Positions 13,709 through 19,539 of a stretch of 64,000 nt of DNA are shown here, in pieces; position 1 is the first letter of the stretch, and each line of letters starts with the position of its first letter. The DNA is from Planctomycetota bacterium (lineage in GTDB: Bacteria; Planctomycetota; GCA-002687715; DRQF01). The position numbers and the translations under genes are program-made. The stretch covers positions 1 to 64,000 of the forward strand of contig JAZGFI010000113.1 of NCBI GenBank assembly GCA_036479435.1. Reading direction: 5' to 3'. The notes under the pieces are model-generated. The model was not told the DNA's origin. It saw nothing but the letters and a program-made list of their open reading frames with translations, and made no database searches.

Positions 13709-15694
13709 TTGGAAAAGCGAATCATCGTGGCCGGCGTGCTTTCGCTGGCGATCATCCTCATCTGGGAGAGCCTCCAACCGAAGGCTCCCGCACCAGAAAA
13801 GAACGAGAAATCGGGCACGCCGTCGTCGGTCGATGGACTATCTGAGCCGGGCGCGAGCGCCAATGGCAAGCCGGAGTCCGTTCTGAACTCGAATGGCAAG
13901 CCGGTCTCAGGTTCGGTGGTCCCTACGACGCCGGATGGTTTCAAAGGTCCGCAACGCTTGGGCGATGCGGTCTTAAGAGACCAAAACGCCCCCGCCCTCG
14001 TTCTCGCCGACGAAGAACTCCGTCTTGAGTTCGATCAAAAGGGTGCCGCGGTCAAGACCGCTTGGCTCCTCGATCACCTGCAAGAAGTTGACTCCGACCC
14101 CGAGGGTTGGGAGGGCCGGCTCAAGATCATTCGCAGCGATACCCGCGCCGAGCGCGGCGCGCTCTTGCTTCGTGACGAATCGCGTATGGAGGGTTGGCTC
14201 GATCGCGTGGTTTGGGATACCGCGGGACCCTCCGCGGACGGCACATCCATCGTTTTCAGTTTGCCCGTGGCCGAGTCAGTCGTGGTCTACGATGATCAAG
14301 GACGTGAGCGCTTCGAAGCGGTTCAGTATCGCCTTGAGAAAACGATCTCGCTGACCGGTGACCCCAATCGGATCGCGGTCCGCATTGACATGGTCCATCT
14401 CGCGGGCCGAGGAGCCGTTTCCAAGACTCTGTTTTTGAGTTCCAGTGGCGGTGTCTTTCCCGATCGCATTCGAGGCGTAAGTTCGTCACGGGCGCACAGC
14501 GTCGCCGGCACCCGCGACGGCGATGAAGTTGAAATCGCGAGTTTTTCGGCTGCCGACATCCTGGAAGAGTTCGGCGATGCGGGCAAGACCGTGGACCGCG
14601 CCTATTACGTCTGCGACATGGGAGTTTACTTCGGGGCCTACCTGCGTCGCCTCGATGGTGAATTGCAGATTGCCCACATCTTTGCGGTCGAAGGCGTTTC
14701 AGAGGGTGGCGCCGTTCCCGCATTCGAGAACACTTGGTCCGAGTTGGGGTTGGACCTAAGGACGGACGCCTCGAATCCGAAAAGCACCGTCAATTTTGAT
14801 TGGTACTTGGGGGCGAAAGACCACCGGCGCATCAAATCGAGCTACGAAAGCGACGATAAGCTCCGCCGTGACTACCTTGAAGTTGCGGACTTTGAGTTGA
14901 CCTCTCAGGGCTTTTGCTGCATCGGTCAGGCGGGGCCCTTGGGCTGGATCATTGAAGTGATCTCCAAGTTTGTCGTTTCGATGCTCAGCTTGTTCAACGG
15001 CATGATTGGCAACATGGGCGTCTCCATCATCATCTTGACCTTGCTGATCCGAACGCTCTTGTTCCCGATCACGCGTAAGTCACAAGTCGCCATGCAGACG
15101 CACGCGGCGAAGATGGCGAAACTGAAACCCAAGCTCGATAAACTCAAGGAAAAGCACGCGGACGATCGTCAGGCCTTTGCGGCCAAGCAGATGGAACTCT
15201 TCAAAAAGGAGAAGGTCCAACTGGTGCCGCTCGGCGGATGCCTGCCGATGTTTCTCCAAATTCCGGTGTTCTTCGGGCTGTTTTCGGCGCTCCGCTTCGA
15301 CTACGACTTGCGCCATGCGAGCTTTTTGTGGTGCAAAGACCTGGCCGCCCCCGATAGCGTCATGAGTTTCGATCCGATCGGCTTGCCTTGCTGTATTGGG
15401 CCCGGCGTTCAGATCGACGGACTCAACGTCTTTCCCCTGTTGATGATCGCGGCCATGTTCTTCCATCAGTTGGGCATGCCACGGTCGCCGGACCCGCAAA
15501 TGCAGCAGCAACAAAAAATCATGATGCTGATGCCTTTGGTATTCGGCGTGATGATGTATGGCTATGCCGCTGGACTCTCCGTCTATTGGTTGTCGAGCAG
15601 CCTGTTCGGGATCTTTGAGCAGCGCGTTATCAAGAAGTTCTTCCCGCTAGAAAAGGCGGACAAGGACGATAAGGAGTCCGGAGTTACGACTTGA
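13709..15694 (+). CDS. yidC: Membrane protein insertase YidC
   Basis: N-terminal TM, large periplasmic domain, LLFPIT, GGCLPMFLQIPVF, LWCKDLAAPD and GLSVYW motifs. Confidence 0.95.
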   Translation: MEKRIIVAGVLSLAIILIWESLQPKAPAPEKNEKSGTPSSVDGLSEPGASANGKPESVLNSNGKPVSGSVVPTTPDGFKGPQRLGDAVLRDQNAPALVLADEELRLEFDQKGAAVKTAWLLDHLQEVDSDPEGWEGRLKIIRSDTRAERGALLLRDESRMEGWLDRVVWDTAGPSADGTSIVFSLPVAESVVVYDDQGRERFEAVQYRLEKTISLTGDPNRIAVRIDMVHLAGRGAVSKTLFLSSSGGVFPDRIRGVSSSRAHSVAGTRDGDEVEIASFSAADILEEFGDAGKTVDRAYYVCDMGVYFGAYLRRLDGELQIAHIFAVEGVSEGGAVPAFENTWSELGLDLRTDASNPKSTVNFDWYLGAKDHRRIKSSYESDDKLRRDYLEVADFELTSQGFCCIGQAGPLGWIIEVISKFVVSMLSLFNGMIGNMGVSIIILTLLIRTLLFPITRKSQVAMQTHAAKMAKLKPKLDKLKEKHADDRQAFAAKQMELFKKEKVQLVPLGGCLPMFLQIPVFFGLFSALRFDYDLRHASFLWCKDLAAPDSVMSFDPIGLPCCIGPGVQIDGLNVFPLLMIAAMFFHQLGMPRSPDPQMQQQQKIMMLMPLVFGVMMYGYAAGLSVYWLSSSLFGIFEQRVIKKFFPLEKADKDDKESGVTT

Positions 15695-15698
15695 GACC

Positions 15699-17114
15699 GT
15701 GAACGACAGTACTCAACTCGCGCGCGGGCTCGGCGACACAATCGTCGCCGTTTCTTCACCCCCGGGCGCAGCGGCCCGGGGGGTGATTCGCCTCTCCGGC
15801 GATCGAGCGGCGGATATTGTCGATCACTTATTTTTGGCTGATGGTCAGCAGCCAACACCAGTACATATTGAGCGCGGCGTTAGCCGAGGTCGACTTTGGC
15901 TGGGCCGAACGGGAGTTCACGTCAGGGCCTTCGTCTTGGTCATGCGGGGACCGAAGTCCTTTACGGCAGAGGACGTCGTAGAAATCCATCTCAGCGGCGC
16001 GCCCGCCTTGCTGAGGATGGTGGTTGACCTTTGCATCCGCGAGGGAGCCCGTCCCGCTGAGCCCGGCGAATTCACCCGGCGGGCCTTTCTCAACGGCCGC
16101 ATCGATTTGACGCAAGCGGAGGCCGTCGCGGCGCTCATTCACGCACAATCCGAAGCCGAACGGCGGGCCGCCTTGACCGTCTTAGACGGTGTTGTCTGTC
16201 GCCGCAACGCCGAACTAAGCGCTCAGCTGGTCGCCGTCTTGGCGACTTTGGAGCTGTCTCTCGACTTCTCCGATCAAGATATTGAGATCGTCGTCGCGAA
16301 GGATCTGGACGCCAACTTGGCGGGGGTCGTGGAGGGCATCGACGACTTGATCGCGCAGGGGCAATCCCGGCGCCAGCGCGCGGATCGCCTCCGGGTCTTG
16401 TTGTCCGGGCCAGCAAATGCCGGCAAGAGCTCCCTTTTCAACGCGCTCTTGGGGCGCTCCCAGGCCATTGTTTCCGAGCAAAAAGGCACGACGAGGGACT
16501 ATTTGGAGGGAGAGCTCGATCTTGAGGGGCGGCGTTTTTTAATAATCGACAGTGCGGGGGTCGATTTCGTTGGCGGGGCGGTTGACCAAAAAGCCCACCT
16601 GCTCCGCGAACGCGAACGCGAGCGGGCTGACCTCGTGGTCGAAGTACGAGACGGTCGCCTTGCCAGCCAATCACCAAAGGAATCGCCCGCACTCTCGCGG
16701 CAACCCGCAGAGCCGAAATTTCGGACGGCCGTGCTTCGGGTATGGACTCGTAGCGATCTGGTGCCGCTCGTCGACCGTTCGCGGCCAAATGGACACTGGG
16801 TCGACTTGGGCAAGGCTGGAAGTGGGGCGGGTGGCCTCGTCGAATTCACTGCGGCTCTTCGCCAGTCGGCCACTCCTTTTCAAGATTCAGTTAGAAGCTC
16901 GCTCTTGGCTCTGAGCGAGCGTCAAGCTCGCCTTTTGGCCAAGTCAAAAGAGGCCATTGAGCGCGCGAGAGAAGGCTTATCTCGGGGGCTGGGCGAAGAA
17001 CTGCTGGCGGCCGATCTTCACGAGGCCTTGGCCTATTTTCGGGAGCTTAGCGGCGAGGACTACGACGACCAGGTCTTAGACCGAATCATGAGCGATTTTT
17101 GCATCGGAAAGTAA
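15699..17114 (+). CDS. mnmE: tRNA modification GTPase MnmE (TrmE)
   Basis: DTIVAVSSP, SFTAEDVVE, PGEFTRRAFLNGRIDLTQAE, GxxNAGKSS, GTTRD and C-terminal FCIGK; follows yidC. Confidence 0.93.
   Translation: MNDSTQLARGLGDTIVAVSSPPGAAARGVIRLSGDRAADIVDHLFLADGQQPTPVHIERGVSRGRLWLGRTGVHVRAFVLVMRGPKSFTAEDVVEIHLSGAPALLRMVVDLCIREGARPAEPGEFTRRAFLNGRIDLTQAEAVAALIHAQSEAERRAALTVLDGVVCRRNAELSAQLVAVLATLELSLDFSDQDIEIVVAKDLDANLAGVVEGIDDLIAQGQSRRQRADRLRVLLSGPANAGKSSLFNALLGRSQAIVSEQKGTTRDYLEGELDLEGRRFLIIDSAGVDFVGGAVDQKAHLLRERERERADLVVEVRDGRLASQSPKESPALSRQPAEPKFRTAVLRVWTRSDLVPLVDRSRPNGHWVDLGKAGSGAGGLVEFTAALRQSATPFQDSVRSSLLALSERQARLLAKSKEAIERAREGLSRGLGEELLAADLHEALAYFRELSGEDYDDQVLDRIMSDFCIGK
17096..17113 (+). repeat. 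attL-like direct repeat copy 1 (within the last mnmE codons)
   Basis: TTTTTGCATCGGAAAGTA, identical to 18806-18823. Confidence 0.9.
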
Positions 17115-17133
17115 CTCGTGACGCATCTTGCTA

Positions 17134-17592
17134 ATGACGTTAAAGCAGTTCGAAGGATCTCAAGCTCTGGACGAATTTCGAGCACGAAAAAGGGCGACGG
17201 CGAATTTAGCGTTCGCCACACAACTGTGCGTCAAACAAGCCGAAGGGACCGAGTTCGCGTGCGCGAATCGACTTTACTACGCCGTCTTCCAGCAAGCAGT
17301 ATTTGCGTGCTACCGGCAATTGGGGTTTGAAAAAGCTCGCACCGAGATCGCCGACACAAACGGACAAATGGGAGACAGCCCTTTTTATCGTCAAGCAAGA
17401 GTGCCGAAAGTGCTGGCTGGTTGCAGGGTGATTTCTCGCTCCGACCGCGACGACTTTGCGTCCATCAAAGACTTGCGCGTGAAGGCAGACTATTCCAATT
17501 TTGATGTCGAGTGGGACGAAATTGAAGAACACCTTGCGTTGGCCAACAGCATCTACGACATGTTGAACAAGAAATTTGGAGAGACGAAGTGA
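17134..17592 (+). CDS. HEPN-domain protein (UPF0332-like), putative toxin
   Basis: ANRLYYAVF and LRVKADY motifs, typical of the R.YYA.F / R..ADY HEPN subgroup. Confidence 0.78.
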   Translation: MTLKQFEGSQALDEFRARKRATANLAFATQLCVKQAEGTEFACANRLYYAVFQQAVFACYRQLGFEKARTEIADTNGQMGDSPFYRQARVPKVLAGCRVISRSDRDDFASIKDLRVKADYSNFDVEWDEIEEHLALANSIYDMLNKKFGETK

Positions 17593-17825
17593 ATAGGGAA
17601 AAACTAATTTCCGATGTCAAAGCCGCGCTCGCCAAATCTATCCCGAATGGGCGTGATTTCACGGTGGGCGTCACAGTGGATCCAGATGATCCCAATCACA
17701 AGGTGATCGTCGTCCACGGTGAGATTTTCGGCGATTCCGTCTTGAGAAATAGTCAGATGGTGCGACGGGAACTGCGTGATTTGATTGAGCCAGAGGACCA
17801 AATTGTTCTGCTTCGCAAAGCGTAG
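17589..17825 (+). CDS. Small protein coupled to the HEPN gene; putative antitoxin core (degenerate MNT/BolA-like)
   Basis: GTGA overlap with the HEPN stop; KVIVVHGEIFG...RRELRDL pattern; probably continues in another frame to 18031. Confidence 0.55.
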   Translation: MNREKLISDVKAALAKSIPNGRDFTVGVTVDPDDPNHKVIVVHGEIFGDSVLRNSQMVRRELRDLIEPEDQIVLLRKA

Positions 17826-18031
17826 AGAAGCAGCCTTCGGAAGTGTTCATCACAATGCACTCAATTCGAACTGCTGTGCAATTGAGCTGGGACTTAGAGT
17901 CCGTGGCGGTGTCGAGTCCAACATTTGTTGCTCACGCTGATTCAGGATCGAGCTTTTCGAATTTTGTGCCTCCAACGCGCACGCGAAGATTTAGGACGAG
18001 TAGAGTTTTCGATCTCGTAACTGCGGCATGA
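17819..18031 (+). pseudogene. Probable frameshifted C-terminal extension of the 17589 ORF (Ser/Thr-rich tail ending LVTAA)
   Basis: One extra A at CGC AAA GCG would join the two frames; its TGA overlaps the next ATG (ATGA). Confidence 0.45.
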
Positions 18032-18294
18032 CAAACGAGACCAAAAGTCCGCATGAGTCGCCATTTCAGATCTCTGAGGTTCAAGTGAGCGAAATGCAAG
18101 AAAGCGAGCCCACGCTCAAGGTCTTCGCGAGTTTTCACGCCCCTGCAATTCTATACGGATTCGGCCGGGAGCTGATCGCGGACTTGGGGCGGCGGTCAAA
18201 GATGGACGCTGCATTGTTGCCGGTTCTTGACTTCACAAAACTTGATGCGGTCAACGTCGAAGTGAGCGACTCCACTTCTGATCAAGAGCAATGA
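18028..18294 (+). CDS. SecB-like chaperone, short (88 aa), possibly internally deleted
   Basis: APAILYGFGRELIADLGRRS...LLPVLDF matches the SecB helix/C-terminal pattern; SPFQISEVQV resembles the first strand. Confidence 0.65.
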   Translation: MTNETKSPHESPFQISEVQVSEMQESEPTLKVFASFHAPAILYGFGRELIADLGRRSKMDAALLPVLDFTKLDAVNVEVSDSTSDQEQ

Positions 18295-18315
18295 AGCCAA
18301 AGAGTTAGACTTTGC

Positions 18316-18345
18316 AGCCCGCCTCACTCGAGGGGGCTTTCTTTT
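18316..18345 (+). terminator. Intrinsic terminator of the island operon
   Basis: AGCCC-G-CCTC/GAGG-GGGCT hairpin followed by TTCTTTT. Confidence 0.65.
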
Positions 18346-18805
18346 GCCCACGAAAAGGCACCGTCTACCAAAGAGGGTAGCAGCCGGGGAACACCACACC
18401 GTTCGCTCTAAAGACCACCGATTCCCATCATGGTGCCCACGAGCCTCGAATTTTGGGAACTTAGGCCCATATTTCGATCGCTCATCAGGAAAAGGAGGGC
18501 GACCGTGCAACACCACTTAGTCAAGGCTTCCTGCTAACGGGAAGCGCCAATTTACTTGCCCGGCACGCGAAAACCATTGTGATGATGACGCTCTTCCCTT
18601 CGTGTCGCGAACTCAGTGCTCGAGGGGTCAGCTCGTACCGTGCATTGAGAAGAAAAAGTACTCGCTCGGCGATCGAAGTCGCCCGGCTAATTGACAACAG
18701 CCAAGGTTGCGACATCCACACATCTTGGCGTGCTGTGGTAGTGCTCCGATTCAATCTCTTCCACTAAACTCTACTCCCAACAACTTTGTGGTCATTTGGG
18801 TTCGG

Positions 18806-18823
18806 TTTTTGCATCGGAAAGTA
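18806..18823 (+). repeat. attR-like direct repeat copy 2 (duplicated mnmE 3' end, F-C-I-G-K-stop)
   Basis: TTTTTGCATCGGAAAGTA; reads TTT TGC ATC GGA AAG TAG. Confidence 0.9.
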
Positions 18824-19068
18824 GGATTCGAGGTGTTCTGTGGGGCTGGGTTGTCGTCTGGATGCTGTGGTAAGCTCCGGGTTCCGGGCGGGGGGGCCGG
18901 CCGGTGCTTATCTTCCGCCATGTTTGTCAATAGCCGCGAGCCCTCGCTAAGCGATTCAGGATCGCCTTAGCGGTTCGAAATCGCCGATGGCGATGCAAGA
19001 TCGTCGCGCCAAACAGAGGCGTCGGTTGATGAAGCCTGGGGCTGCCCGCAACGGATCTGCCGTACGCC

Positions 19069-19539
19069 ATGAAATGTCCATTTTGCAAGGCCTCAAAAGA
19101 CAAGGTCATCGACAGCCGCACGGCGGGTGACGGTTCGGTCATCCGCAGGCGGCGTGAGTGCCTCGGATGTGGGCGGCGGTACACAACCTACGAGAAGGTC
19201 GAAGACATCCTCTTTCGGGTTATCAAAAAAGACGGCGTGCGCGTGCCTTTTGTGCGCGATCGCATCATGTCGGGAATGCTGAAAGCTTGCGAGAAGCGCC
19301 CGGTATCGACCGAGCAGCTCGAAGGTGTCGTTGATGACATCGAGACGCGCATCAACGAGATGTTCGACAAGGAAGTCGCCTCCAAATTCATCGGCAACAT
19401 GGTGATGGATGCGCTCCGTAGTTTGGACCAAGTGGCCTACGTGCGGTTCGCGTCGGTTTATCGCGAATTCAAAGACGTGAACGAGTTCATGAGCGAGCTG
19501 AAGGAGATGCTCGAGAAAACGAGTGATGGCGAGGCTTAG
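19069..19539 (+). CDS. nrdR: Transcriptional repressor NrdR
   Basis: MKCPFC...VIDSR...IRRRREC..C..RYTTYE, ATP cone and [10 protein letters not shown] motifs. Confidence 0.97.

Follow-up and report, generated by a model that had tools for sequence, protein, structure and literature searches.

A probable relic of a toxin-antitoxin-chaperone cassette with a HEPN-domain toxin homologue at the 3' end of mnmE in a planctomycete genome

Background

Toxin-antitoxin-chaperone (TAC) systems add a SecB-like chaperone to a toxin-antitoxin (TA) pair, and the families named in the literature consulted are HigBA, MqsRA and HicAB (PMC5105189; PMC3581621) and CmdTA (PMC11618068; bioRxiv 10.1101/2024.02.24.581848), with a further mention, in PMC3581621, of TAC toxins of unknown family. 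As described in PMC5105189, what sets TAC antitoxins apart from chaperone-independent ones is a variable extension at the C-terminus, the chaperone-addiction (ChAD) region, and the Mycobacterium tuberculosis antitoxin HigA1 is active without its chaperone when it is deprived of the ChAD tail (deltaC42). According to PMC8165232, the ChAD region of HigA1 contains the site for the chaperone as well as a ClpX degron, and Ala-Ala is typical of such degrons. In the current report we examine a cassette of similar gene order, with a homologue of HEPN-domain toxins in first place and a SecB-like open reading frame (ORF) in last place, that lies on the + strand of a 64,000-nucleotide stretch of DNA from a Planctomycetota bacterium (GenBank assembly GCA_036479435.1, contig JAZGFI010000113.1, positions 1 to 64,000; this whole stretch is referred to here as the window).

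The word HEPN was not found in PMC5105189, PMC11618068 and bioRxiv 10.1101/2024.02.24.581848, and no description of a TAC system with a HEPN toxin was found in the literature that was searched, the scope of which did not extend to most subscription journals or to supplements such as the toxin-community tables of PMC3581621. A first-pass annotation of the window, made by a model from the sequence alone, had likewise known of no characterised TAC system with this class of toxin.

We interpret window positions 17114-18823 as foreign DNA of 1.7 kb that was inserted where mnmE ends and that carries the eroded relic of a HEPN toxin-antitoxin-SecB-like chaperone cassette, and we assign to this explanation, taken as a whole, a probability of about 0.72. 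The window and 12 intact relatives from other sources share the order toxin, antitoxin, chaperone, and in the window copy two of these three genes have suffered damage. The locus has probably lost its activity; at most, it would be a pair of two genes that does without a chaperone.

Intact relatives of the cassette

The first-pass annotation had described a coupled operon with a SecB-like ORF at its end, and had taken it for a TAC module. All of the ORFs that it listed, their GTGA and ATGA overlaps and their sequence motifs were found again where it had placed them, and the arrangement is beyond chance, with the same order and motifs recurring in 12 intact loci elsewhere. The annotation would have been contradicted by a triplet confined to this locus, which is not what the searches showed. 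The operon is, however, not an intact one of four genes: the antitoxin gene is split between two ORFs (ORF2 and ORF3) by what appears to be a frameshift, the chaperone ORF (ORF4) is without 60-76 residues, and the toxin homologue (ORF1) is without a near-invariant His.

A search with the Pfam SecB profile of 401 genomes of the same phylum gave matches in 10 genomes, nine of them above the cut-off. The order HEPN, antitoxin, SecB is present in seven of these 10 (G017, G287, G209, G122, G299, G301 and G084), where a protein of 123-179 amino acids (aa) with the motifs AA[SN]R.YY and LR.[KR][AS]DY is followed by a protein of 143-191 aa and a SecB-like protein, all encoded by overlapping or abutting genes. 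The SecB loci of G116 and G127 are cut by contig ends, and the locus in G218 has a different toxin, a CmdT-type ADP-ribosyltransferase by its motifs. Where their context is visible, the SecB-family genes of the sampled phylum are parts of toxin-antitoxin triads and not stand-alone export chaperones; seven of the 10 genomes with any SecB-like gene have it in a HEPN triad, which is almost the only context in which such genes occur in this sample.

Scanning of metagenome contigs with a toxin alignment yielded 80 loci, and a hidden Markov model of the chaperone matched at L029, L048, L090, L091, L096 and L092. Since L091 is identical to L090 and L092 is cut by a contig end, there are five distinct metagenome triads, and 5/80 is a lower bound because many of the contigs are short. 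Together with the seven genomes of the same phylum, this brings the number of intact triads to 12, in which the HEPN toxin measures 117-179 aa, the antitoxin 139-191 aa and the SecB-like chaperone 138-180 aa. The antitoxin gene is uninterrupted in all 12 and tail-less in none, and the motifs conserved in the intact toxins are R, W-x-H and R-x3-D-Y. Most of the other metagenome loci lack a chaperone gene and have a small ORF tightly linked to the HEPN gene on its 3' side; these unlinked small partners are most often 87-90 aa long and end in ...I[VI]LS...

Several other searches returned little. Word-based homologue searches with ORF1, ORF4 and the antitoxin alignment recovered essentially only the clusters of the queries themselves, a search of the genome contigs for related loci from one alignment recovered only G017 itself, and the chaperone alignment found nothing among the metagenome contigs. 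With tblastn, a toxin of the family had no match in the phage collection, and a chaperone of the family had two matches in plasmids, both in CmdT-like triads and not in HEPN triads.

Two kinds of related triads were observed alongside these. A three-gene variant in metagenome contigs (L025:2477-4040, L026, L027, L028 and L052:2501-3963) has a DUF6941 gene in place of the SecB-like gene, and consists of a HEPN toxin, a partner of 163-181 aa with an N-terminal domain that fits the antitoxin profile and a C-terminus other than Ala-Ala, and a DUF6941 protein of 192-205 aa (Pfam E about 2.5e-6, just above the cut-off) that may be an alternative accessory protein or chaperone. The CmdT-like triads are L008:295-1875 (in G218), L105:1407-2749 (plasmid NZ_CP020371.1) and L106:1423-2791 (plasmid NZ_CP094259.1). 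Their toxins of ~175-208 aa have HGT...G.GVYF[FW] motifs that resemble CmdT and ADP-ribosyltransferases by eye, and their antitoxins end in IIAA (L008), LAAS (L105) and LLAA (L106). On the plasmids, the toxin and antitoxin genes are annotated as 'hypothetical protein' beside a gene for 'protein-export chaperone SecB'.

The toxin homologue

ORF1 (17128-17592, + strand) is an intact ORF of 154 aa from a TTG at 17128, or 152 aa from an ATG at 17134, and contains the motifs ANRLYYAVF and LRVKADY. A profile built from eight toxins retrieved 3137 cluster representatives at E<=0.001 in a search of 1.84 billion proteins. The toxin alignment of 122 sequences was made from ORF1 of the window, the toxins of seven loci and 114 of the 150 representatives listed, after removal of the cluster of ORF1 itself and of 35 sequences that were fragmentary, fused or only partly matching. 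The Pfam HEPN family PF05168 is matched at E<=0.01 by 87 of these 122 sequences, with a best value of 2.8e-13. The AlphaFold2 model of ORF1 computed from this alignment is all-helical (predicted local distance difference test score, pLDDT, 89.7), and the best Foldseek match to it in the PDB is the HEPN protein AF_0298 (2hsb; E 4e-4, template modelling score 0.82 on the target), followed by the HepT toxins 7bxo and 5yep, by 4nqf and by the HEPN domain of sacsin. By sequence, the solved structures closest to the toxin profile are 9xbd and 9xbc ('HEPN domain-containing protein') and again 2hsb ('UPF0332 protein AF0298'). Because the relatives match PF05168, the model is all-helical and both Foldseek and the profile lead to HEPN structures, ORF1 has the HEPN fold and belongs to a UPF0332-like branch of such proteins; its HEPN identity had been proposed from its motifs in the first-pass annotation.

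Among the conserved residues, ORF1 retains R48, R117, D121 and Y122. At position 89, where 119 of the 122 aligned sequences have His, it has a Gln that is unique in the alignment, and at position 87 it has Tyr where 107 of the 122 have Trp. The Gln at position 89 suggests, as judged from the alignment, that decay has reached the toxin gene as well. One of the two recently deposited entries 9xbd and 9xbc has Phe in place of the Tyr of R-x3-D-Y, which hints at ongoing study of that Tyr.

The probably split antitoxin

ORF2 (17589-17825, + strand; 78 aa), the candidate toxin-side N-terminal domain of the antitoxin, has a GTG start codon that runs into the stop codon of ORF1 in the overlap GTGA. 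Its structural model (pLDDT 84.9) consists of a helix at residues 3-15, strands at 24-30 and 38-44, a helix at 51-62 and a strand at 71-77, which amounts to a complete alpha-beta-beta-alpha-beta domain that ends where the short partners of two-gene relatives end in our alignment of HEPN partners (A9). The first-pass annotation had proposed a degenerate MNT- or BolA-like antitoxin. No match to ORF2 or ORF3 was found in scans with the profile libraries of Pfam, PADLOC and NCBIfam, and a Pfam scan of 19 ORFs from related loci (17 partners and two third-gene products) detected no nucleotidyltransferase family; the 17 partners were without a match above the cut-off, and the two third-gene products were DUF6941 proteins. 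Fold searches with the ORF2 model gave generic alpha/beta matches such as BolA/YrbA, OsmC, RimP-N and the C-terminal domains of CDF proteins, at a best Foldseek E of 4.9e-3 and a best VIA Z of 8.3, a Z that is common for models without a clear match, with the putative nucleotidyltransferase 1ylq among them at a Z of only 6.4. As modelled, the domain is a generic alpha/beta fold and not an MNT, and of the BolA likeness there remains a weak generic resemblance and nothing more specific.

The ORF3 frame (17789-18031, + strand), the candidate C-terminal tail or ChAD-like region, is open for 62 aa from a GTG at 17843, of which 29% are Ser or Thr; it includes a Trp motif and ends in LVTAA, with a TGA stop codon that is joined to the ORF4 start codon in the overlap ATGA. 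Relative to ORF2 it lies in the -1 frame, and both frames are open between 17789 and 17825 on the + strand, where the loss of one base would have produced a -1 frameshift. ORF2 and ORF3 are most likely, on this sequence evidence, two pieces of a single ancestral antitoxin gene of ~146 codons that was broken in this way.

The bipartite organisation that this implies is the one found in the intact relatives. Alignment A9 shows an N-terminal domain of about 80 residues that is common to all HEPN partners, and past it the chaperone-linked partners extend for another 60-100 residues of highly variable sequence. This extension is a feature of the family that chaperone-free homologues lack, the commonest unlinked partners (87-90 aa) stopping at the end of the N-terminal domain, and in the window it is represented by ORF3, out of frame with ORF2. 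Ala-Ala forms the C-terminus of 11 of the 12 chaperone-linked antitoxins, and Ala-Gly that of the twelfth; in the metagenome set, a terminal Ala-Ala is present in 5/5 distinct linked partners versus 0/39 distinct unlinked ones, 17 of which are 80-89 aa long. The 11 Ala-Ala ends and the LVTAA of ORF3 would each qualify as a ClpX-type C-terminal degron, and an antitoxin tail that ends in Ala-Ala and precedes a chaperone gene is what the first-pass annotation had recognised here, as in the TAC systems. A complex prediction run without alignments for four copies of the L015 chaperone and residues 80-143 of the antitoxin returned a score of 0.00, a value that has no bearing on binding.

If the two frames were instead parts of a functional TAC system, the tail might be made as a separate small protein or be joined to ORF2 by programmed -1 frameshifting, and ORF4 would be a miniature SecB-like chaperone. 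Such a system would be in keeping with the four tightly packed ORFs and their 4-nucleotide overlaps, with the -1 direction of the shift from ORF2 to ORF3, and with the identity of the sequence in sequencing runs of three studies. We nevertheless regard it as highly improbable: the intact triads all have one uninterrupted antitoxin gene, and the part that supplies most of the SecB beta-sheet in 13/13 relatives is missing from ORF4. Programmed frameshifting in particular was set aside because the segment 17789-17825, read by eye, contains no canonical slippery heptamer (X_XXY_YYZ) and because the chaperone is truncated.

A different alternative takes ORF1 and ORF2 for a working chaperone-free HEPN TA pair, a natural reversion from TAC to TA, with ORF3 and ORF4 alone as relics. 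Both ORFs are intact and coupled by the GTGA overlap, ORF2 is a complete domain in the length class of the 87-90-aa partners of two-gene HEPN relatives, ORF1 retains its two Arg residues together with D121 and Y122, and removal of the ChAD region frees HigA1 from its chaperone according to PMC5105189. The toxin, however, is alone among 122 aligned sequences in having Gln for His89, and has Tyr where 107 have Trp. We consider a working pair unlikely, though well worth keeping in mind; judged from the sequences, it would coincide with our preferred explanation to a large extent and would differ only in that the toxin would still be active.

The probable chaperone remnant

ORF4 (18028-18294, + strand; 88 aa) contains APAILYGFGRELIADL...LLPVLDF and is, by sequence, homologous to the SecB-like chaperones, as had been claimed at first pass. 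It matches Pfam SecB (PF02556) with E=0.0025 and 18.2 bits (cut-off 26), at profile positions 88-133 of 141 only, and also NCBIfam SecB models and the PADLOC model PD-T4-9_C of the CmdTAC chaperone (E=8.7e-4). With BLASTP, it is 59% identical over 32 residues to the chaperone of G017 (E=6e-12), which itself scores 30.3 bits with Pfam SecB, above the cut-off, and hhalign places its residues 26-72 on columns 91-137 of the chaperone profile with a probability of 97.6%. Residues 1-24 are colinear with the chaperone N-terminus and first strand (hhalign E=0.005; MAFFT), which is the reason for assigning to ORF4 its own native start. Between residues 23 and 24, it is without a stretch of 60-76 residues (about 64) that is present in 13/13 full-length chaperones and makes up most of the SecB beta-sheet, so that what is left is the native start and first strand, an internal deletion, the long helix and the C-terminus.

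The colinear N-terminus bears on a further possibility, namely that the chaperone gene was itself broken by a frameshift near 18005-18031, with ORF3 as its N-terminal half and ORF4 as the rest, and that the antitoxin, ORF2, has no tail. Counted from the internal ATG, ORF3 would contribute 57 aa and ORF4 88 aa to a total of ~145 aa, a SecB-like size, and the alternating hydrophobic pattern AVQLSWDLESVAV in ORF3 resembles a first beta-strand, by eye only. The hhalign test that could decide the matter is a weak one, in which the N-terminal halves of three true chaperones gave E=0.0013, 0.012 and 0.06, but ORF3 did worse than all three of these controls (E=0.53 over 2 columns). ORF4, moreover, already matches the chaperone N-terminus with its first 24 residues, the Ala-Ala end and the ATGA overlap are the signature of chaperone-linked antitoxins, and a tail-less antitoxin occurs in no intact triad. 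We therefore think this assignment improbable and retain the reading of ORF3 as a displaced antitoxin tail.

Weight of the evidence

The lesions cannot be put down to a single assembly, because positions 17000-18500 are present in one piece, with 0 differences and 0 gaps, in Logan contigs of each of the runs X1, X2 and X3, which belong to three studies.

A number of observations weigh against the interpretation of the cassette as an eroded TAC relic. Two of the three runs may be the source of the window DNA, and assembled contigs hide rare variants. No intact cassette closely orthologous to that of the window came up in the searches, and for this reason the frameshift and the deletion are deduced from distant relatives with 18-35% identity. 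ORF1 by itself falls short of the PF05168 match that the first-pass annotation had anticipated (E=0.021; 15.4 bits against a cut-off of 22), a family that 87 of the 122 aligned sequences do match, and BLASTP detects no similarity between ORF1 and the G017 toxin. The canonical HEPN catalytic motif is Rx4-6H. The window, like the whole subfamily, has R117-x3-D121-Y122 instead, with a Tyr at the position of the His, and the closest solved relatives 9xbd and 2hsb have no His aligned with position 89, so that Gln89 may not inactivate ORF1.

For the antitoxin, the alignment of ORF2 with the antitoxins of the triads is colinear but weak (BLASTP E=0.15, hhalign E=0.033), and ORF3 has no detectable similarity to the other antitoxin tails (hhalign E=0.41; hmmsearch 1.9 bits), a result that is to be expected because these tails are not conserved among themselves. 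The assignment of ORF3 as a tail is drawn from its position, its terminal Ala-Ala and its gene overlap. The intactness of ORF1 and ORF2 leaves room for a working pair, and the toxicity, neutralisation and chaperone dependence of the family members are put forward by analogy with the literature on known TAC systems and HEPN proteins.

The insertion site and its flanks

The order of genes on the + strand of the window is yidC (13709-15694), mnmE (15699-17114), the four ORFs of the cassette and nrdR (19069-19539). Pfam confirms mnmE through TrmE_N and MnmE_helical, and also nrdR. A 21-bp direct repeat brackets the cassette, the two copies of which are 1710 bp apart and identical at 20/21 positions. 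The left copy (17093-17113, + strand) forms the present 3' end of mnmE, encoding ..DFCIGK with a stop at 17112-17114, and the right copy (18803-18823, + strand) appears to be the displaced ancestral end of mnmE, encoding ..GFCIGK with a TAG stop at 18822-18824, after which comes the ancestral mnmE-nrdR spacer. The FCIGK-stop with which mnmE now closes is thus supplied by the insert, and the former end of the gene survives 1.7 kb downstream.

Two genomes of the same family show the site without the insert. The distance from the end of mnmE to the aligned part of nrdR is 233 bp in G004 and 182 bp in G007, and the matching points are 1992 bp (compared with G004) and 1984 bp (compared with G007) apart in the window, so that about 1.75 kb is absent from both genomes at this site. 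The downstream copy of the repeat and the sequence 3' of it align with the mnmE end and the spacer of G004 and G007. The G+C content is 0.48-0.54 within the insert, versus about 0.60 in its flanks.

Pfam found no family in the ORFs of the rest of the insert (18196-18970), and hence no integrase, and Rfam found no match in 16900-19200. The terminator that the first-pass annotation placed after the chaperone ORF is present as a weak hairpin and T-run (18321-18345, + strand) with a 5-bp stem at 18321-18337; five such sites were observed in 2.2 kb, compared with 3.1 +/- 2.0 in shuffled sequences, which is not above expectation. No gene, RNA family or repeat could be recognised in the segment of ~460 bp that lies 3' of the chaperone remnant (18345-18802), which may be further decayed cargo. 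In the genome as a whole, which is 92% complete, there is no second member of the HEPN family of ORF1 and no other credible SecB-like gene.

Proposed mechanism and history

In the intact relatives, three translationally coupled genes would encode a HEPN toxin that, by analogy, may act as a ribonuclease (RNase), an antitoxin and a chaperone. The N-terminal domain of the antitoxin would bind and neutralise the toxin, a mode of action that we favour because this domain shows no sign of being an enzyme. If HigBAC, MqsRAC and CmdTAC are a guide, the tail would make the antitoxin dependent on the chaperone and would carry a ClpX-type degron, and whenever the chaperone is occupied elsewhere the Ala-Ala degron might become exposed, the antitoxin be degraded and the toxin be set free.

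In the window, a frameshift behind the N-terminal domain might have cut off the tail and left an antitoxin that, like HigA1 deltaC42, would no longer need a chaperone. Because HigA1 deltaC42 is active without its chaperone, loss of the tail could have been tolerated and the chaperone gene could have become dispensable, which fits its decay. That gene would then have lost ~64 internal codons for the beta-sheet, in an order of events that we infer, and the toxin would have been weakened or killed.

A broader proposal is that the HEPN-antitoxin-SecB triads are a functional class of chaperone-gated HEPN RNases, probably triggered by stress or phages and equipped with a new non-MNT antitoxin domain, and that the window is a natural 'deltaChAD' revertant of this class; to our minds the chances for and against this proposal are evenly balanced. 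Were it true, the window would be an evolutionary snapshot of the transition from TAC to TA, which has so far been shown only by engineered deletions. The broken copy in the window fits the published logic of addiction, in which a chaperone is no longer needed once the tail is gone. The pairing of a HEPN toxin with a new antitoxin domain that is not an enzyme would strengthen the case that ChAD tail and SecB-like chaperone together form a control module that can be transferred, and would demonstrate restraint of HEPN toxins by means other than AMPylation of the MNT type. The intact relatives at locus L015 of G301 and locus L004 of G017 are ready candidates for functional study.

Comparison with known systems

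A TAC system with a HEPN toxin would be of a kind not yet described, sharing the toxin fold of the HEPN/MNT systems and not their MNT partner, with an earlier mention in subscription journals or supplementary tables being possible. With the HEPN/MNT (HepT/MntA) systems of type VII and the UPF0332 proteins (AF_0298, 2hsb; 9xbd), the HEPN-SecB family has in common the fold and Pfam family (PF05168) of its toxin, the conserved Arg of the N-terminal helix and the R-x3-D-Y region. It differs from HEPN/MNT in that the partner is not a nucleotidyltransferase and is encoded downstream of the toxin, in the Tyr that replaces the His of canonical Rx4-6H, and, in the HEPN-SecB branch, in the tail of the chaperone-addiction type on the partner and the additional SecB-like gene.

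CmdTAC (PD-T4-9), an anti-phage system, resembles the family in its SecB-like third gene, and its antitoxin is disordered. The CmdT toxin is an ADP-ribosyltransferase, in contrast to the HEPN toxin here, and phage defence, which has been shown for CmdTAC, is a conjecture for the HEPN triads.

The closest likeness in organisation is to the TAC systems represented by HigBA1-SecB(TA) of M. tuberculosis (Rv1955-57), MqsRAC, HicAB-SecB and HigBAC of E. coli. These have the same order of toxin, antitoxin and SecB-like chaperone, an antitoxin with a variable C-terminal extension that is absent from chaperone-free homologues, an antitoxin end composed of small hydrophobic residues (Ala-Ala in the HEPN family, a Val-Ala ClpX degron in HigA1), and a sporadic distribution that suggests horizontal transfer. 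The window copy differs from them in being broken in the antitoxin and the chaperone, and the family as a whole differs in its protein domains, with a HEPN-fold toxin in the place of the HigB, MqsR or HicA RNase, and an alpha-beta-beta-alpha-beta N-terminal domain without a Pfam family in the place of the helix-turn-helix, MqsA or HicB domain of the antitoxin.

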